A DNA stretch of 64,000 nucleotides from a virus (taxonomy: Duplodnaviria > Caudoviricetes), in the IMG/VR virus record IMGVR_UViG_3300044475_000035, positions 1-64,000 of that record; one strand, 5' to 3'. Positions within the stretch are counted from its first letter, which is position 1. Every line of letters begins with the position of its first letter. The position numbers were made by a program, and so were the translations under genes. This document shows positions 3,946 through 61,361 of the stretch, one piece after another. The notes under the pieces were generated by a model that had not been told where the DNA came from, did no database searches, and saw nothing but the letters and a program-made list of their open reading frames with translations.

Positions 3946-4581
3946 ATGAGATCAGCAGAAGAATTGTTAGAATTATTTCATAAAGTGCATTTTGGTAAGT
4001 ATGAGTACCCTGACTTCTCTGCTTGCCTATCTAACGACAGAATTGTTATTCGTTGTAGAGAACATGGTGAGTGGACGCAAAGACTTAGTAAACACCTAGA
4101 GGGTCAAGGTTGTAAGAAATGTGCAGGAAGAAATAGTTCAACTAAATGGGAAAACCCAACAGGATTCAGGGACGAGCAAGGTGTTCAGGTACAATACAGA
4201 GAGTACACTATCTGGCGAGCGATGTTACAAAGGTCAAAACCTGCATATTGGGAAAAGCATAAGCACTACACTGATACTAAGGTGTCGGAGAATTTTCGAT
4301 CTTGGGACTACTTCAAACGTTGGTGGGATGCTCAGTTTAATTCTAACTTCTTAGATGAACATGGTAAACCTTTTGAATTGGATAAAGATATACTCTCTTG
4401 CGAAGGTAAACTCTATTCAGAAGATACTTGTTGTTTTATACCTAGAAGACTAAACGAAGCGTTAGGAAACAAACAGTACGAGTATATTAGAACCAATTTA
4501 AGCAGGTTTGAGAGTGTTGTTTCAGCTAACGTCTTATCAAATCTAAAAATGTTATTAGGAGAACAAAATGGTAAAGTTTAA
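3946..4581 (+). CDS. HNH homing endonuclease with an N-terminal DUF723-like Zn domain
   Basis: CREHGEWTQ..HLEGQGCKKC; YTIWRAMLQR, ELDKDIL, YSEDTCCFIP..LN. Confidence 0.85.
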   Translation: MRSAEELLELFHKVHFGKYEYPDFSACLSNDRIVIRCREHGEWTQRLSKHLEGQGCKKCAGRNSSTKWENPTGFRDEQGVQVQYREYTIWRAMLQRSKPAYWEKHKHYTDTKVSENFRSWDYFKRWWDAQFNSNFLDEHGKPFELDKDILSCEGKLYSEDTCCFIPRRLNEALGNKQYEYIRTNLSRFESVVSANVLSNLKMLLGEQNGKV

Positions 4582-5325: not shown

Positions 5326-5800
5326 ATGAAGACATACTTAGACCCTACCAATAACTACTGTTGTATTTTATCTCATTACAAACGTGATAAATCTTGGATT
5401 GAAATACCCGTAGGAACAGAAGTTTTAACGGGATTGAAAATTGACAAATATTCTTTAGTGTTTTGGAAACCAAGTGTGGGTGAAGTATGGGCTAATGGTA
5501 GGTTTGCTAAATACGCTGTTCAGGATTCTGTGTCGTTTGAGGAATACACTGATAGATGGGTAACTAATCCTGTGTTGTGGAGAAAAGATAGTGTTTGATA
5601 CTAAACAAACAAAAGAGTTAATGAATATTACATACGAACTTCATACTCTAAACGTACAACATAAGTCTTTAGCTCTTGCAGAGAAAGTATTTGTTTTAGA
5701 TAAAGATGAAATGCTTGCTAAAAGATTGAAAATAGAAGAAGATATTCATGCTGTATTGGTTAAGCTTGAAGATGCTCTTATAGGAGAACGTAATGCGTAA
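5326..5800 (+). other. two small hypothetical CDS (~5326-5598 and 5591-5800)
   Basis: RBS AGGAGGAG; overlapping, translationally coupled ORFs. Confidence 0.65.
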
Positions 5801-32355: not shown

Positions 32356-32709
32356 TTAACCTTGTTTTTCTAATACTTTAAATGAAATGATAGGAGCATT
32401 AGTCTTTTCTTCATTATCTTGTTCTTCTGAACTGTTAGATTCTTTACCATAAGCTTCATTTAGTAACTTAGGGTATTCAGCAAGGATTAAAGCTGTTGCT
32501 CGTAACTTCCCTTGTTCTGATGCACCTTCGCTATCCAATACTTTCTCTGCATTAGCTAGAGCTTTAGCAACTAAAGGTTTATACCTACGAAGTAGTTGCT
32601 TTAACTCTTTCTCTCTTACTTCACTTCCTGTAAGAGACTTGGGATTAACCAAGTCCTTAGCATTTGGTCTTCCGTGAGGGTTTCCACTTTTTCCTTTTTC
32701 AAAAGGCAT
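32356..32709 (-). CDS. terminase small subunit (DUF5681-like)
   Basis: PFEKGKSGNPHGRP N-terminus; directly upstream of TerL. Confidence 0.8.
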   Translation of the reverse strand: MPFEKGKSGNPHGRPNAKDLVNPKSLTGSEVREKELKQLLRRYKPLVAKALANAEKVLDSEGASEQGKLRATALILAEYPKLLNEAYGKESNSSEEQDNEEKTNAPIISFKVLEKQG

Positions 32710-32718
32710 AATTAACTC

Positions 32719-35595
32719 CTATGTTAATTTGATAGTTACTGTTGCGTAGTTATTCACAACAGAACATAAAAGTCCACCGTCACTCACCATTTCACTGTGT
32801 AGTGTAAAGTTTGCGTGAGTATCAATCAAAGTAGCAGATTTACCTGCAAAATCTTGTGGTAGTGGTAGTTTTAACATTGAAACGTTCTGATGAATATCTA
32901 GCACTACCTTGACACTATCACCATCAGCATACCACGTATATACAGTAGCTTCGGGAAGAACACTAGAACTATAAACAGACCTATAGGCAACAGCATTTAC
33001 AACAGTACCACTTGGGATTAAACCACTTGGATATAAGTTAGAGGTTATAGCTTTAGGGTACATTTTTTTAGTACCACCGTTAAAGAAACCTGCATCATTA
33101 ACGTTCTGACGTAAACTTGGTTTAGTGATTCCTCTTTCTAATGAATACCCTACAACATGACCAAATTCTTTAACACTACCATTTTTAACGATGTGAGCTA
33201 AACGATCAGGTGGGTTGGTAGCACTTGTCCAATTTGCTTTAAGTAAGTAGATAATATCTGTTACAGAAGTAACATCAGTAACATTACTTAAATTGTAAGT
33301 ATTTGAACCTACTGTTACTGTATTCATTCTTGGAACATAGTAAAGTAGAGACTTACCTGAATAATTTAAAGCACCTGCTTGTGTAATACCTGAGAAGGTA
33401 AAATTAAGTGCAGATTTGGTTTGTAATTGAGTATTAACAGTACAACTTCCGTTGAGACTATAACGATAAACTGTACTAACTCGTACATCAGATGAAATGT
33501 TTGTGTTACTTAAATTTTGTTCGGTAGGTGTTCCTACGTTTGCTTGTAAGTACGTCAATGTAGCAGGTACACTCATAATATCGTAATTATCAACAAACTC
33601 TACAAACTTAACATCGTATACACCATTTTCTGTTAGCTCTATAAAACTGTCTGCAATAATCTTTTTACTGTGATTATTCACAGAAGGATAGAATTGCGTC
33701 AAAGATGAAGCTGTTGGTGTAATCGCTGATGTATTAGTTGCACCTGTGCTATGCGTAAGAGTTAAACCATTTAAAGATGTTGTAACGAACTGCCAATATG
33801 TTGAACCTGTATTTTGACTTACTAACCAAAGCTTGTTAACATCAACAACCCTTACAATAGTCCAAGTATTTGCACCTTGCGTCCATTGTGACCCTACATC
33901 AACAAAAGTCTTACCGTGAGCTGTCATTGTGATTTCTTGTACAATTAAAGCTCCGTGATTCGCACCGATATATGTACCATTATAATACAATGGTGCTGCA
34001 TCATCACCCAAAGCAGCTAGAGATGTACCTGTTGCAAAAGCAATAACAGTTCCGTCCCTAGAAGTACTTGATGGTATGGTTCTAACGTTTTGAGGGTTTA
34101 TTGCGTTATTCACCCAAAGACTGTTTGCTCCATATCTAATCTGTTGTACCAAATCTAAAGAGCTAGTGAATTTAGTTCTGATGTACGCATCTATTCCACT
34201 GATTGTTACTGTGAAAATATCTCCTGAAACAGTAGCTTCTTGTGAAGATGTTGTTGGGAGTGAAGAAGGTTTTAATACTAGATAAGTGCTTGAACCTGTG
34301 TATGGTGTAAAAGCTGTTCTTACAGAACCAATCTCTAACTTAGTATTATTAACAAGATTATCAAAATCATCAGTTGTATGCGTTATATAGGTCGTCATCA
34401 TTGCTATTTTAGCAATACTTGAACCTACAGGGATTGTAAACTTAACAGTCCTATCAGCATCAGAATAAGCAATACCTGTCGGAGGGTTTGGATTAACTAA
34501 CTCACCTGCGGATGGAATAGAGTGATCTACACCAAGATACACACCATTCGAATCGTATGTGTAAATTGCTCTAGTGAATGTAAACCCTTGATCTAAAGGT
34601 AATGCAAAGATGTACGTGTTACCTGCCGTAACATTATGCTTACCAAGAGAAATACCGTTTGCAAATGAAGATGTGTTACCTGTTGCGTAACTAATAATAA
34701 CACCGTTTGTAGCTAATGTTGGGTTATATAAGTTATTTGTTACGTTCTCTGTAAAGGCAGAATTTAACACATCTACGGCTGCATTAGTCAAGTCTATTTC
34801 ATTTCCAAAATCTGTCACAGGGGTAATAAAATCAGTAGATGTACCATCTGCAATAAACGGATTATAAACGTACATCTCTCTAGTGCTAGTTGTTTGCATA
34901 TTTATAATCAAACGAATTTTTACAGCACCAACCGTTACAGACCCTACGTTTACTTTAAATGTTTGTTTCTGCACTGCTGCTGATGCGCTTGTAATAGCAT
35001 AAGTAGAACTAATAATAGTGTTACTACTATTAAGTTGTTGGATACCAATGTAACCGTTACTCCCTGCTGTTAAATCCTCTACAGTAATCGCTGCTGAAAA
35101 GTCACGAGTAAATAGGCTAGCATCAAAATCCCAATAAGTGATAATTGAACCACCTGTAGATGCACTTACTAGCTTCATCTGTTTAATGTTGTTTCGATAA
35201 ACAAATGTTCTTGTACCTGTTGTTGATGTAGGTAGTGCGTTAAACAACACTTGATCTAATGTAAGCTTGTTAGGGTTTTGAGTTCTATTAAATTCTAAGT
35301 TATTTGTGTACGTTTGAGCTTGTGTTAAAGGGTCATAGTTTGATTTAGTTAATACTGTACCGTTCCATAAATACAAACCATTGTTTGTTGAGGTACTATC
35401 GTTTGTAACCTCTACTACAGTGTTAGCAGGGAGTGTAGAAGTTGCTGCTGTAGCTAAAGCTAATGTAGCGTAACCTTTATGTCCACCTGCAATAGCACCA
35501 ACCATACTATCTACATATGTAATATCTGCTTTCTTTTGTATTGCACTTGCGTTATCGTATAAACCTAGTGTTGTCGTACCACCACTTGTAATCAT
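32719..35595 (-). CDS. large spike/fibre structural protein
   Basis: GHKGYATLALA...LPANTVVEVTND....NNGLYLWNG..LTKS.YDPLTQA anchor, recalled from Acinetobacter phage spikes; long Thr/Ser beta-rich body. Confidence 0.7.
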   Translation of the reverse strand: MITSGGTTTLGLYDNASAIQKKADITYVDSMVGAIAGGHKGYATLALATAATSTLPANTVVEVTNDSTSTNNGLYLWNGTVLTKSNYDPLTQAQTYTNNLEFNRTQNPNKLTLDQVLFNALPTSTTGTRTFVYRNNIKQMKLVSASTGGSIITYWDFDASLFTRDFSAAITVEDLTAGSNGYIGIQQLNSSNTIISSTYAITSASAAVQKQTFKVNVGSVTVGAVKIRLIINMQTTSTREMYVYNPFIADGTSTDFITPVTDFGNEIDLTNAAVDVLNSAFTENVTNNLYNPTLATNGVIISYATGNTSSFANGISLGKHNVTAGNTYIFALPLDQGFTFTRAIYTYDSNGVYLGVDHSIPSAGELVNPNPPTGIAYSDADRTVKFTIPVGSSIAKIAMMTTYITHTTDDFDNLVNNTKLEIGSVRTAFTPYTGSSTYLVLKPSSLPTTSSQEATVSGDIFTVTISGIDAYIRTKFTSSLDLVQQIRYGANSLWVNNAINPQNVRTIPSSTSRDGTVIAFATGTSLAALGDDAAPLYYNGTYIGANHGALIVQEITMTAHGKTFVDVGSQWTQGANTWTIVRVVDVNKLWLVSQNTGSTYWQFVTTSLNGLTLTHSTGATNTSAITPTASSLTQFYPSVNNHSKKIIADSFIELTENGVYDVKFVEFVDNYDIMSVPATLTYLQANVGTPTEQNLSNTNISSDVRVSTVYRYSLNGSCTVNTQLQTKSALNFTFSGITQAGALNYSGKSLLYYVPRMNTVTVGSNTYNLSNVTDVTSVTDIIYLLKANWTSATNPPDRLAHIVKNGSVKEFGHVVGYSLERGITKPSLRQNVNDAGFFNGGTKKMYPKAITSNLYPSGLIPSGTVVNAVAYRSVYSSSVLPEATVYTWYADGDSVKVVLDIHQNVSMLKLPLPQDFAGKSATLIDTHANFTLHSEMVSDGGLLCSVVNNYATVTIKLT

Positions 35596-38863: not shown

Positions 38864-39030
38864 GTATTATCCTTTATCGTAATAGACACATCAATAGCCA
38901 CGCTAACCTGCCTTGATGCTGAGAACACATAAGCTGTTCCCCTCTCCACAACTATCGAACTTATTTGCTAAGTTCTTTATTTATTGTTGTTATGCTCATT
39001 ATTCAATGAGTCTTCTTGTTGCAAACTGAA

Positions 39031-39133
39031 TTGTCAATTAAGATTAATGAGTATTGTATCTAGTTGTCATACTCACTTACGGATACACAGAGTTTATTTA
39101 TCTCTAGCCTAGATTGGTAACAATAATTGACAA
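39031..39133 (-). ncRNA. putative structured RNA A (possible pseudoknot)
   Basis: 10-bp closing IR TTGTCAATTA/TAATTGACAA; internal TGAGTAT/ATACTCA stem whose loop GATACA can pair with upstream TGTATC. Confidence 0.5.
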
Positions 39134-39137
39134 AACT

Positions 39138-39359
39138 TTAATAAATTGGATTCTTCTGAGGGGTTACACAACCAAAATACATTTGTTGTTCTACAATCCC
39201 TTCAAACTTATAGTTCTTAGAATATTCAGCATCACGTAATATTTTATTTACTTCGTTTCTACAGATATTGCAGAATGTCTCTTCAATCGTCGTTCCGTCT
39301 TCTAATTTACGTTTACCTGTTGTTCTTGACAAGATTCTATCACAGCACTGACAACGCAC
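39138..39359 (-). CDS. small Zn-finger protein
   Basis: MRCQCCD...FCNIC; GTG start with RBS GAGGT. Confidence 0.7.
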   Translation of the reverse strand: MRCQCCDRILSRTTGKRKLEDGTTIEETFCNICRNEVNKILRDAEYSKNYKFEGIVEQQMYFGCVTPQKNPIY

Positions 39360-39399
39360 ATAACACCTCTTAATTATATTTGTTTATTAATTCTAAATC

Positions 39400-39518
39400 T
39401 TAAAGAAGGAGCAATCTGTAACGACATTGCAAATAGTTACACATGCAGTCTAAATCTATGCACTTGGACAGATTGTCAAACAACTGAATGAACCGAAAGA
39501 AGCATTGCTCCTCTTTAA
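39400..39518 (-). ncRNA. putative structured RNA C (multibranch)
   Basis: 15-bp closing stem TTAAAG(A)AGGAGCAAT/ATTGCTCCTCTTTAA; three internal hairpins. Confidence 0.55.
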
Positions 39519-39522
39519 AATC

Positions 39523-39717
39523 TAATCAAACAAGTAAGGCGTATGTTGAACTTAGCTGATTCGGTACAACCACGAATGTCTGTACTAACGGTTCGTTCAA
39601 TAGCCTCTAGGACTTCCTCTTACTTCTACTTACACCTAGCAGATCACCTAACTTAGAGCTTATGTATGCAAGGATAACGGTGTACATACTAAGCATCATC
39701 TTGTGATTGTTTGATTA
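39523..39717 (-). ncRNA. putative structured RNA B (~195 nt, multibranch)
   Basis: 11-bp closing IR TAATCAAACAA/TTGTTTGATTA; internal stems GCTTA-GTATGTA/TGCATAC-A-TAAGC, CTAGG/CCTAG, TTGAAC/GTTCAA, GTACA/TGTAC. Confidence 0.55.
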
Positions 39718-39904
39718 AGTTGTGTTTTATAGACTTTAACACCTGTCATCAATGTCTCTTAAAGAGACTTTACTTCGGGGAGAAGTATTCAGTATTGTAC
39801 ATTTGAAAGGCTGTACTTCACCCACAATCCAAACAGAGAAACTTGTTCTTGTGTAAGGTTGCTTATGGAGAGCTGATCTTATAACCATACTCTCAGGGTT
39901 AGTA

Positions 39905-39980
39905 ACTAGGTGGTCTTGATCATTTCTGATTTGCCATTGTTATCAGGCGACTCTTATGTGCTTGCAAACACAAACCTAGT
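39905..39980 (-). ncRNA. putative structured RNA D (76 nt)
   Basis: 7-bp closing stem ACTAGGT/ACCTAGT with two internal hairpins. Confidence 0.4.
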
Positions 39981-39985
39981 ATTTG

Positions 39986-40050
39986 ATATGTCTTGTCAGG
40001 ATGTGTAACCCTTACTGCCGATCAGCACTGTTAACAGTTACAAGACATAT
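39986..40050 (-). ncRNA. putative structured RNA E (65-nt mini-cloverleaf)
   Basis: 11-bp closing IR ATATGTCTTGT/ACAAGACATAT; three short hairpins, two with G-U pairs that form only on the minus strand. Confidence 0.5.
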
Positions 40051-40376
40051 TTGTTAAATTAAGTGACTTCTTGTGTACAGGGGAGAAGTCTTAACCCTTT
40101 ACTTAGACTTGCAACATAACCTTAATCTACACTGACATTTCTGAATGGTAGACCCCCCTGTTAGTCATCACGCTAGTTTAGTTCACCTTTAACACCACAA
40201 TAACCGAAGCTCTTGCGTCTATCGGGGTAGGTGGGGTAGTGAGACACCCTTTTTAACATTGTAAGAACTGCTTATCTCAAATATGTCTGAGAGGTTTTCA
40301 ACTTACAACGTATTACCTAAACCGTAACCTTCGTTTATAATATCCATAATTTACTCCAATAAATTTAAATTAGTTG

Positions 40377-40715
40377 CTAGTCTTTTCCTTTAGGACGTTT
40401 ATCTTTAGCATATTCACTATAGAAATTTAACTCATCTTCGGAACGATCTCCGACATAAACATCTAAATTCTTTTCTTTTTTGACTTTGTATTGGTAAGAG
40501 CTAATCGTATTTCCACTCTCATTCATGATAAAGACATCACCATCTAACCAATGTCTTCCTTGTTGTAGATTATCAAAGTTATCATAATATGTGTAAACTA
40601 ATTCAACACCTTGAATATCAATCTCAGGTTTATCAACTTTAATAAACTCAATATAGTCTTGAGCCTCTAAGAGTTGATAAGTACCATCTTGTTTCATGGA
40701 TTTAATATATAACAT
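40377..40715 (-). CDS. hypothetical protein embedded in the ncRNA region
   Basis: RBS GAGG; VFIMNESGNTI motif common in small phage proteins. Confidence 0.7.
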   Translation of the reverse strand: MLYIKSMKQDGTYQLLEAQDYIEFIKVDKPEIDIQGVELVYTYYDNFDNLQQGRHWLDGDVFIMNESGNTISSYQYKVKKEKNLDVYVGDRSEDELNFYSEYAKDKRPKGKD

Positions 40716-40842
40716 TTATTTTCCTCGTGGTTGTAGTAGTAAGGTGCTAGTTAGGATTATCTAGCTTTCCTAGCTAACCAAAAGTATAAGGAGATTAATT
40801 CCTTCTGATTAGGGAAACCACATAGGAGATATTCTTACAAAT

Positions 40843-40914
40843 CACTGTGTATAGGATTCAAACCTATCTGAGACGGAGTAGAATTCCGTTGCATATTCTC
40901 TCTGCCAACACAGT
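40843..40914 (-). tRNA. degenerate tRNA-Arg(UCU)-like gene
   Basis: Acceptor ACTGTGT/ACACAGT, D-stem GCA/TGC, anticodon stem ACGGA/TCCGT with loop ATTCTAC, T-arm ATAGG-TTTGAAT-CCTAT; lacks D-loop GG, C56 and encoded CCA. Confidence 0.65.
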
Positions 40915-41026
40915 GATTTAGAAGTTGTGAGGTGGTGACTCACAGTTAGTGAGGGAGAAGGAGAACTCCGATCTAACACCTTTACCAACAGAATTAACTA
41001 GTATGTTTTCTTGTTGGTATAAGTTA

Positions 41027-41055
41027 AGAATAACATCACATCTCGATTTTGTCTA
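41027..41055 (-). promoter_or_regulatory. sigma70-like promoter driving the ncRNA/tRNA/structural block
   Basis: Minus strand TAGACA-N17-TATTCT, followed by the hairpin TACCAACA/TGTTGGTA. Confidence 0.6.
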
Positions 41056-61094: not shown

Positions 61095-61361
61095 TTATTT
61101 CAAAATAATACGTTTACAACGAAACTCTGTAACTGACGACAATCTAAATGATTTGTAACTTTTAGATTCCATATCGAATACACAAAGTAGGTTAGGGTTA
61201 TTACGAACTATTGTACGTTTGTTTGGTTTACGAGATAAGAAACGTTTAATGTTTGTCTTAGCTAATAGTGTACGTTCTGTTCCATCTGCTTTAATGAAAC
61301 GTATAGTCATAGTAGTTGAATGACTAGAGTTAATTGCTTGTCTTAATTGCTCGATGTTCAT
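61095..61361 (-). CDS. WYL_2/DUF2693-like SH3-fold protein
   Basis: IRFIKADGTERTL...VFDMESKSYKSFR motif. Confidence 0.7.
   Translation of the reverse strand: MNIEQLRQAINSSHSTTMTIRFIKADGTERTLLAKTNIKRFLSRKPNKRTIVRNNPNLLCVFDMESKSYKSFRLSSVTEFRCKRIILK

Follow-up and report, generated by a model that had tools for sequence, protein, structure and literature searches.

A row of swappable, predicted structured RNAs in the tRNA slot of a probable Acinetobacter myovirus, with head modules that may pair with AGGAG ribosome-binding sites

What does a phage encode in a 2-kb region that appears to consist mainly of closed stems? We examined this question for 38887..41030 (minus strand) of the window, by which we mean the whole 64,000-nucleotide stretch analyzed (positions 1 to 64,000 of IMG/VR virus record IMGVR_UViG_3300044475_000035). 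A sequence-only reading had described the region as an almost ORF-free array of structured RNAs at the head of the late operon. The first part was overstated, as three ORFs (112, 73, and 14 aa) occupy 606 of 2,144 nt, a coding fraction of 28%. The region is the tRNA-cluster slot of the phage, upstream of the virion operon; the source is probably an 83-kb myovirus of an uncultured group with Acinetobacter as its host. L033, which is a close relative, and the phages Herod, R2096, Felix O1, and DC31 have tRNA clusters at the syntenic slot. In relatives the slot holds tRNAs, GOLLD, or hammerheads: tRNA hits range from about 19 (L033) down to none, an Rfam search found GOLLD (RF02032) in the equivalent slot of Herod, L001, L033, and L034, and a type I scan found hammerheads in the loci of L028 and L044. 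The slot position and a tRNA gene, two marks of a phage tRNA cluster with interspersed non-tRNA RNAs, are present. None of the RNA runs on record contained the region. In contigs from two runs of one sample, probably of DNA, the flanking tail genes were deep and the array middle was thin, which we do not count as evidence. The features are listed in Table 1. Homologues per module were counted out of 60 loci, a wider homologue search covered 157 loci, and order and position were compared over 12 complete arrays (the window and 11 relatives).

Table 1. Features of the array and its promoter, in the direction of the predicted transcript
Feature	Position	Strand	Remark
Promoter, sigma-70 type (TAGACA, 17 nt, TG-extended TATTCT)	41027..41055	-	9/12 match
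M1, fixed first module: 5' hairpin and branched domain	40926..41020	-	14/60 loci
tRNA-Arg(UCU), acceptor stem extended to 12 bp	40842..40915	-	ARAGORN
M2, fixed second module: linker, long hairpin, small 3' hairpin	40744..40835	-	17/60 loci
Accessory ORF, 112 aa, with ribosome-binding site	40377..40715	-	Weak PHROG 3909, E 7e-4
Micro-ORF, 14 aa, with word (D/E)GYGLG	40303..40347	-	Recurs elsewhere
M4, stem-closed hairpin (40259-40308 in the sequence-only reading)	40255..40311	-	Single sequence only
M5, variable module	40185..40250	-	Homologue in one relative, L028
M6, compact H-type pseudoknot	40065..40098	-	20/60 loci
M7, 65-nt mini-cloverleaf without canonical T-loop	39986..40050	-	Folding z -3.1
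M8, stem-closed module	39905..39980	-	Single sequence only
M9, variable module common to cultured A. baumannii phages	39796..39871	-	81% identity to Ab3-TPeters
M10, 195-nt multi-stem module	39523..39717	-	9/60 loci; 22/53 pairs changed on both sides
M11, most frequent cargo of socket A (closing stem long and bulged)	39400..39518	-	19/60 loci
Cys-rich ORF, 73 aa, conserved, inside array	39138..39359	-	311 homologues
M12, cargo behind the 73-aa ORF	39031..39133	-	59-nt core common to Friunavirus podoviruses
M13, near-fixed tail module (core 38888-38950), directly ahead of first virion gene	38888..39003	-	43/60 loci

All seven closing inverted repeats reported earlier were present at their coordinates, but only the longer ones carry signal. 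Perfect stems of at least 10 bp closing 30 to 200 nt numbered 4 in the array versus 0.5 ± 0.7 in 200 dinucleotide shuffles (maximum, 3), and equal-sized tiles of the genome had a mean of 0.6 (36 tiles). Stems of 7 to 8 bp were at chance, with no excess (33 versus 26 ± 5 and 8 versus 6.9 ± 2.7). Blind 100-nt tiles showed no folding advantage over controls (mean z -0.49; p 0.14 to 0.46), which goes against the folding expected of the modules. The claim that G-U pairs favor the minus strand was supported by alignments of the tail module (61 G-U versus 2 A-C cells) but not by folding energy (p 0.08; minus better in only 4/7 modules). Segmenting the arrays automatically by minimum-energy domains gave too much noise for family counts.

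In relatives, we observed compensatory changes for six modules, and a seventh, M7, has one covarying homologue. Among the stems proposed earlier, those of M11 (13/40 pairs changed on both sides) and M10 showed such changes, and the core of M12 was shared with L029 and Friunavirus records (9 records, at 86 to 90% identity). M8 and M4 had no homologue in 157 loci and therefore rest on a single sequence. The array has a fixed frame, with M1 and M2 each in 12/12 complete arrays and M13 in 11/12, around a hypervariable middle; any one relative covers only 8 to 32% of the window's array. Covariation, homology that ends at module borders, and reordering of modules among relatives argue for the earlier interpretation of the array as a polycistronic cassette of separate structured RNAs. 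One closing stem was found with 10 cargo families and a second with 6, after chance matches were removed: the fuzzy search had returned 26 and 8, of which 16 and 2 were discarded by eye because they lay in coding or unrelated DNA or belonged to a different stem. M13 consists of an A-rich leader, an invariant GGAGAG, and two hairpins, with a conserved 11-nt loop, and 12/17 of its pairs are changed on both sides. The sequence-only reading lacked the most conserved modules, namely M1, M2, the M6 pseudoknot, and the M13 core.

Promoter sites matching 9/12 are, taken alone, at chance level. However, this one lies at the identical place in 12/12 complete arrays, the 11 relatives have TTGACA, and the earlier promoter call is upheld. 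Transcription would start near 41020. The promoter is of the sigma-70 type, and the earlier label "late" for the operon is not supported. We rejected ATAAATA, a T4-like word for late promoters present in the M13 leader, as it occurs in 19 to 20 copies per strand without enrichment before virion genes.

The head modules carry loops that resemble an anti-Shine-Dalgarno (anti-SD) sequence, the strongest functional clue and one also missing from the sequence-only reading. The apical loop of M1 is UUCUCCU; the linker of M2 has the word UCUCCU, and the loop of its long hairpin is an invariant AUCUCCUU. Consensus pairs changed on both sides amount to 10/12 in M1 (folding z -3.1) and 20/23 in M2, the latter reached by 0/500 shuffles. 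The M2 model matched clade genomes only, in a single copy each. The transcript predicted for the window has three CUCCU words in its initial ~250 nt, and the best 8 perfect complements of the M2 loop (10 to 13 nt) all lie directly before ATG, outside the virion operon.

The tRNA-like element placed earlier at 40843-40914 proved to be a true tRNA-Arg(UCU) by ARAGORN, with a cloverleaf, a 7-nt anticodon loop, and a D/T elbow; at lowered thresholds the program made hundreds of noise calls. It is 85% identical to an annotated phage tRNA, has no encoded CCA, and is below the Rfam threshold for RF00005. Relative to phage Herod, a D-loop G>A is paired with a T-loop C>U, a compensatory change of the elbow pair that is presumably G19-C56 in standard numbering. 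The anticodon loop W-U-UCU-A-C is present in 8/10 aligned tRNA-Arg(UCU), on four different tRNA bodies. The suggestion of "tRNA mimics" fits part of the array (this tRNA, the M7 mini-cloverleaf, and a T-arm-like hairpin at the end of 4/10 cargo families in relatives).

We then compared ribosome-binding sites, using simple ORF calls. AGGAG was present at 3/103 virion genes versus 155/369 other genes in five clade genomes: 2/21 versus 34/78 in the window and 0/22 versus 37/71, 1/20 versus 24/63, 0/19 versus 25/73, and 0/21 versus 35/84 in four relatives. The split was unchanged under another start-calling rule. Since the five genomes are related, it is one evolutionary observation, not five, and a pooled p value exaggerates its weight. 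AGGAG inside virion genes was not depleted (18 versus 20.6 ± 4.0). The exceptions are the two genes with starts at 35595 and 32709, where the virion run begins, and the site at 32709 has a 9-nt complement of the linker word. We found no such split in seven other phages (36/156 virion versus 149/622 other) and no significant one in the partial genome of L033, where M2 is present (1/13 versus 9/37). The comparison phages are not free of similar loops. Ab3-TPeters has a ACUCCUUA hairpin loop behind a promoter, yet no split (7/23 versus 25/107); PAK_P1 has a CCUCCUCCU loop ahead of the terminase, yet no split; and DC31, with such a loop as read by eye, showed a nonsignificant trend (2/20 versus 18/69).

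Because the head modules carry the complement of a word that virion genes avoid, they may steer translation toward virion proteins. We give about even chances to the following explanation: the tRNA slot is a row of swappable modules, likely made as one sigma-70 transcript and likely cut, whose head modules pair with AGGAG sites and tilt translation toward the virion genes. Host RNA polymerase would make the single transcript, running toward the virion operon, and host RNases would cut the AU-rich linkers, which are short, and the long closing stems, in the manner of tRNA operons. As infection proceeds, stable head RNAs would accumulate and block AGGAG(AU) sites on host mRNAs as well as on the early and middle mRNAs of the phage, while virion mRNAs with GAGGA, AAGGA, or UGGAG sites would pair less well and escape. 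The middle modules would be accessory RNAs and would be swapped through recombination at their conserved closing stems, with inserted HNH genes helping. One caveat is that a sigma-70 promoter should act early, when repression of early genes would be costly to the phage. A bolder version, in which an RNA-run early-to-late translation switch, with virion sites evolved away from the anti-SD loops, is combined with a traded counter-defense library of dozens of uncatalogued RNAs, is tentative, and we regard it as somewhat doubtful.

In this explanation the middle modules would most likely be host directed, as counter-defense decoys or tRNA-derived RNAs. In M6, 98.8% of cells are paired, and 4/11 pairs are changed on both sides, in both helices. 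M7 has its sole homologue at L033 4819-4880, where the four-stem fold is kept and the stems have changed; a match in L159 was rejected as a GC-rich coding stretch, and only chance matches were found for M7 and M8 in cultured phages. M9 is also present in L029 and MD-2021a. M10 is placed after the 73-aa ORF in relatives, where module order differs. M11, with a palindromic loop UUGCAA, was also found in an unrelated 89-kb phage, inside another closing stem. Several modules are present in cultured A. baumannii phages (BS46, Phab24, Ab5, Ab3-TPeters, and Friunavirus). As for the ORFs, the body of the 112-aa ORF had no DNA match in 60 loci. Short ORFs with SD sites in 4 further, distinct phage sequences also encode the (D/E)GYGLG word, and their codons show synonymous changes. 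The product of the 73-aa ORF is possibly a zinc ribbon, with no Pfam match among the 120 homologues listed (of 311) and no match in cultured phages.

A rival possibility is that the whole array, including the CUCCU loops, is a counter-defense kit of 16S-tail decoys for host RNases and of tRNA and RNA-antitoxin mimics, and that the SD split has another cause. Hypervariability fits this, as do modules that recur in unrelated phages infecting one host genus (M12 in Friunavirus, M11 in the 89-kb phage), the retained tRNA-Arg(UCU) with its recurrent anticodon loop, and the small M6 pseudoknot, which we take to be like type III antitoxin RNAs. There is also a precedent: in the available text of 10.1101/2023.03.15.532788, T5 tRNA-Tyr cancels retron Ec78, and the tRNA-rich region of T5 has anti-defense genes. 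However, M1 and M2 are fixed rather than variable, and the start-site-specific AGGAG split is left unexplained. Moreover, exact M6 and M12 patterns were absent from GTDB genomes, a narrow test, so no host original of either is known; a plasmid match in this search was chance. We consider it unlikely that a kit of this kind accounts for the whole array.

Specific known systems were also sought. A type III antitoxin mimic (pseudo-ToxI) has tandem pseudoknot repeats homologous to the host antitoxin; M6 is single copy in arrays, with no Rfam match and no exact pattern in GTDB. A retron msr-msd has a reverse transcriptase adjoining a long msd hairpin; we found no reverse transcriptase in 66 + 19 scanned ORFs (≤64 kb) and no msd-like hairpin in the folds. 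The array has no direct-repeat family and no Rfam CRISPR-DR match, which excludes a CRISPR or solitary-repeat array, as already proposed. The type I scan found no hammerhead in the window (other topologies were covered via Rfam only), and likenesses to Y RNA, RNase P, retron, integron attC, HDV-like, twister, and pistol RNAs were rejected on the lack of an Rfam match alone. Matches of 13 to 15 nt to the array as a long antisense were few and scattered and indicated no single target. At the gathering threshold Rfam had no match in the window, not even to the tRNA, while the same search found the relatives' GOLLD; a snoRNA match was chance (E 1.7).

Alternatively, the SD split could come from a phage protein, a RegB-like nuclease or repressor, or simply from weaker virion SDs, with the loops serving folding, processing, or protein binding. 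In T4, RegB cleaves the SDs of early mRNAs at GGAG and leaves late mRNAs intact (PMC3014915, available part), so the outcome proposed here, early mRNAs silenced via an SD word while late mRNAs escape, is like that of RegB; the agent differs, as RegB is a nuclease, a protein that targets GGAG, and the array would act through RNA pairing with AGGAG. Virion starts also have fewer GGAG sites as such (14/80 versus 191/309), virion SD pairing to the 16S tail is slightly weaker (-5.3 versus -6.0 kcal/mol; p 0.03 in the window), and most small ORFs have no Pfam match, one having a WYL_2 Sm-like fold. However, UGGAG and CGGAG are tolerated at virion starts, and the leading A is mostly missing from the virion GGAG sites (4/14 versus 159/191), so that CUCCU pairing fits better than a GGAG nuclease. 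RegB (PF10715) had no match at E ≤ 1 in 4 to 5 genomes of the clade in a search run without a T4 positive control, and the seven other phages have no such split. We regard this explanation as improbable. That the locus is a decayed tRNA island and homing-endonuclease playground, of largely neutral relics whose closing stems are kept only for safe processing and read-through into the virion operon, is very improbable: the range of tRNA hits, broken tRNA bodies inside closing stems, HNH-like ORFs interrupting many arrays, and hammerheads, which are common passengers, are in keeping with it, but invariant loops on covarying stems (M2, M11, and M13) and the conserved pseudoknot point to selection on function, a compensatory elbow change is kept in the tRNA, and modules persist across distant phages.

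T4 RNAC and RNAD sit in the T4 tRNA cluster. They are small RNAs of unknown function, classed late (PMC9697503, available part). Like them, the predicted RNAs of the array are non-tRNA RNAs of 100 to 200 nt that lie in the tRNA locus of a phage; unlike them, the array has ~10 modules, one tRNA, swappable cargo, and anti-SD loops, with homology compared through Rfam only. GOLLD/ROOL-like long noncoding RNAs adjoin tRNA genes of Herelleviridae (PMC10383478, available part). The array shares its genomic slot with GOLLD but has no match to the GOLLD/ROOL Rfam model and is made up of numerous small modules, each independent, instead of a single large RNA. The genome layout of PAK_P3 is similar to that of the array-bearing phage. 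In the accessible portion of PMC10914365, ncRNA1 and ncRNA2 of this Pseudomonas myovirus are processed, late-accumulating, and without their own start site; unlike the array, they are two single RNAs from 3' UTRs, compared by description only. The Cuckoo/alpha-r14 small RNAs have 2 to 4 adjacent hairpins, each with the loop CCUCCUCCC (PMC4615179, available part). In both cases covarying, variable stems present an invariant, repeated anti-SD loop, and by analogy the M1/M2 loops likely share their mode of action. However, the array presents UUCUCCU and AUCUCCUU on unlike scaffolds, with the word UCUCCU(U) rather than CCUCCUCCC, lacks 2 to 4 adjacent like hairpins, is phage encoded, and has no Rfam match. 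Thus, the earlier claim of an undescribed system of no known family holds for Rfam but not for the setting, which has precedent in T4 RNAC/RNAD and in the relatives' GOLLD. In the literature, with few subscription papers covered, we came across neither these modules nor any anti-SD RNA of a phage. Six sample identifiers were not found in the part of the Fremin 2023 catalogue supplements available (PMC10690425), a catalogue that could include some modules.

Stable RNAs whose role has not been revealed have long been present in phage tRNA loci, as with T4 RNAC/RNAD and GOLLD. One RNA of this slot now has a target signature that is testable genome-wide, a conserved anti-SD loop and a matching SD split. 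Some modules are already open to bench tests, because several of them also occur in A. baumannii phages that are in culture. The middle of the array is a source of RNA families, with at least six well supported and absent from Rfam 15. If the proposed pairing is true, the head modules would do with RNA what RegB does in T4 and would offer a compact means of controlling translation class-wide.

The array is a real feature, and the case for it depends on relatives, because folding energy, short stems and Rfam give no support. The sequence-only reading had described an almost ORF-free tract of modules sealed by seven inverted repeats. All seven repeats are present; those of at least 10 bp are in excess (4 versus 0.5 ± 0.7 expected), but those of 7 to 8 bp are not enriched. 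Blind tiles folded no better than other non-coding or coding DNA. The tract is also less empty than described, since three ORFs (112, 73 and 14 aa) occupy 28% of it. An Rfam search of the stretch was empty, in keeping with the earlier statement that no known RNA family could be recognised. Compensatory changes in homologs, the check then proposed, are present in M1, M2, M6, M10, M11 and M13.

We retrieved 55 loci through the 73-aa ORF (several duplicates or fragments, two weak matches) and sought module homologs by iterated profile searches across 60 loci. For M2, M6, M11 and M13, 0 of 500 shuffles came up to the observed covariation score or percentage of pairing, and the paired fraction dropped to 31-57% in slid registers. 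M7 has one homolog, a cloverleaf identical in fold; M4 and M8 have none among 157 loci. Cells of the M13 alignment hold 61 G-U against 2 A-C pairs, which supports the claimed minus strand; folding energy does not tell the strands apart.

Array modules and associated features. Unlabeled positions are those of the window; L numbers are comparison loci. Homologs are counted among 60 loci; kinship among sequences may inflate the covariation counts (pairs changed on both sides), and structures were drawn from the same alignments.
Feature	Location	Strand	Homologs	Covarying pairs	Remark
M1	40926-41020		14	10/12	
tRNA-Arg(UCU)	40842-40915; also L022, L025, L026, L030, L033, L062, L128				often sole tRNA retained
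M2	40744-40835		17	20/23	
M6	40065-40098		20	4/11	spans both pseudoknot helices
M9	39796-39871		3		
M10	39523-39717		9	22/53	
M11	39400-39518		19	13/40	terminal loop palindrome UUGCAA; GUGCAU in L042, L069
M12	39031-39133		3		
M13	38888-39003		43	12/17	38888-38950: unpaired GGAGAG and 11-nt loop AGGWUAGNGUG kept, directly before first virion gene
112-aa ORF	within array stretch				
73-aa ORF	39138-39359				Cys-rich; 311 homologs
14-aa micro-ORF	40303-40347	-			carries (D/E)GYGLG
Other (D/E)GYGLG micro-ORFs	L023 4429; L033 3169; L047 4308; L081 2140				
tRNA-like RNA	L033 4925-4985; L070 775-862; L078 near 4170-4260				UAU anticodon loop, long variable arm
Type I hammerhead cores	L028 5312-5360; L044 1028-1075				both behind 73-aa ORF
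Insertion, ~1.2 kb	L023, between 5420 and 6630				between last modules; end resembles transposase-associated ORF
Two module arrays, 89-kb phage (G006)	L128; G006 87400-89450				one surrounded by non-virion genes, holding M11, tRNA-Arg and a perfect 16S-tail word; the other ahead of terminase
Group I intron hits	L001 2943-3212; L030 9112-9376; L032 7163-7429				near terminase gene, three related phages
tRNA slot of Limnohabitans phage DC31	L143 4587-4796 / 5600-5640				small Cys-rich ORF; hairpin like the 3' hairpin of M2 (both by eye)
Thy1 (ThyX) gene	62607-64058	-			split by intein with HNH domain
WYL_2 Sm-like SH3 protein	61095-61361	-			Pfam E 7e-6

The window covers 64 kb from the start of a complete 83,188-bp phage genome with a Felix O1/PAK_P1-type layout, as seen from its genes for terminase, portal, capsid, PhoH and Clp-like proteins. 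Its terminase is 48.5% identical to the closest cultured counterpart. All 11 cultured-phage DNA matches to the region are Acinetobacter phages, so Acinetobacter is the likely host. The array separates a divergent PhoH block from the virion genes, in the slot occupied by the tRNA clusters of Herod, R2096, Felix O1 and DC31; Herod also has GOLLD there, and L033 has 19 Rfam tRNA hits plus GOLLD. The locus is very probably a modular structured-RNA operon in a tRNA slot. A group I intron hit in Herod lies between annotated genes. In DC31, a hairpin resembling the 3' hairpin of M2 stands right before the gene upstream of terminase (by eye).

Comparing 12 complete arrays (the window and 11 others), we found a sigma-70-type promoter, M1 and M2 each in 12/12, M13 in 11, M6 in 9, M11 in 6 and M10 in 3; absence is the informative part of these counts, because the profiles were built from these very sequences. 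A single relative shares just 8-32% of the array found in the window, and the position of M10 is not constant: before the 73-aa ORF in the window, behind it in relatives. Ahead of this ORF, an extended closing stem with bulges encloses 10 unrelated cargo families, 4 of which end in a T-arm-like hairpin, and a second closing stem behind it holds 6 (counts after 16 and 2 rows, respectively, were removed by eye). The stem around M11 in the window is a variant of the first one, with compensating changes. M12 also occurs in Friunavirus podoviruses, M9 and further modules in the BS46/Phab24/Ab5 group, and M11 in the 89-kb phage. Judged by these matches, modules cross lineage lines between phages. 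Many arrays are broken up by HNH-like ORFs.

The variable cargo is probably accessory and host-directed; that it acts in counter-defence is a tentative suggestion. The anticodon loop is W-U-UCU-A-C on four different tRNA-Arg(UCU) bodies, but C-U-UCU-A-A in Herod and L009; evasion of an anticodon nuclease is one possible cause. That the array is a decoy kit throughout we consider unlikely. The M11 loop may mediate dimer formation through a kissing loop, or it may be anticodon-like, and the WYL_2 protein is a candidate RNA-binding partner of the array RNAs. The (D/E)GYGLG micro-ORFs (8-32 aa, one in cultured phage Phab24) have SD sites, synonymous codon changes and sometimes a doubled word. The UAU tRNA-like RNA is not annotated in R2096. 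No type I hammerhead core was found in the window; that of L028 was below Rfam's gathering threshold when the same genome was scanned as L021.

The stem of the M2 hairpin varies freely, but its loop, AUCUCCUU, is invariant in 12/12 aligned sequences, and a more distant copy retains CUCCUU on a different stem. The word recurs in the M1 loop and the M1-M2 linker of most arrays and is complementary to AGGAG(AU). We called ORFs of at least 60 aa and took as virion genes those on the same strand up to 20 kb downstream of terminase; the comparison set lay outside the zone from -9 to +30 kb. Four genomes were read over their first 80 kb only. In the window, AGGAG stands upstream of 2/21 virion versus 34/78 other genes; four relatives gave 0/22 versus 37/71, 1/20 versus 24/63, 0/19 versus 25/73 and 0/21 versus 35/84. 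A second start-calling rule reproduced the split, which counts as one evolutionary event because these genomes are kin. Seven other phages showed no split (pooled, 36/156 versus 149/622); the partial genome L033, kept out of the pool, gave 1/13 versus 9/37, not significant. Among 48 sources, the M2 model matched genomes of the clade only. Of perfect complements to the M2 loop of the window, the best eight all precede ATGs outside the virion operon. Ab3-TPeters and PAK_P1 have anti-SD-like loops in the same zone, yet no split; in DC31 such a loop, identified by eye, goes with a weak trend.

It is doubtful that a protein or weak SDs cause the split. SD words, of GAGGA, AAGGA or UGGAG type in virion genes, are equally frequent in both sets (17/21 versus 57/78), and our search found no RegB. 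Virion genes show no internal depletion of AGGAG. Against a role of M1 and M2 in translation, the pairing of virion SDs with the 16S tail is a little weaker, and two genes heading the virion run have the word, one with 9 nt complementary to the linker word. GGAGAG in M13 could be a cis pairing partner of the M1/M2 loops.

On the reading that M1 and M2 act on translation, host polymerase would make one transcript across the array, and cleavage in the AU-rich linkers and at the closing stems would release stable RNAs. RNases E, III and P are general precedents for such cutting. M1 and M2 would build up and block AGGAG sites on host mRNAs and on those of phage non-virion genes; the virion operon would have lost the word by evolution. 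We give this scheme, the likeliest one, an even chance; early firing of the sigma-70 promoter would count against it. That the array is a neutral, decayed island is very improbable.

The array shares its placement with T4 RNAC/D (PMC9697503) and GOLLD-like RNAs (PMC10383478) but is neither by Rfam. Its head would work like cuckoo sRNAs (PMC4615179) without their defining loop and layout, and the proposed outcome equals that of RegB (PMC3014915) without RegB. Processed late ncRNAs have been described in PAK_P3 (PMC10914365), and counter-defence in the T5 tRNA region (10.1101/2023.03.15.532788). Our literature search, which covered the Fremin 2023 supplements in part, found no account of these modules. 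The array belongs with the known non-tRNA RNAs of phage tRNA loci, several of its RNA families are uncatalogued, and it gives a testable translation-switch hypothesis.
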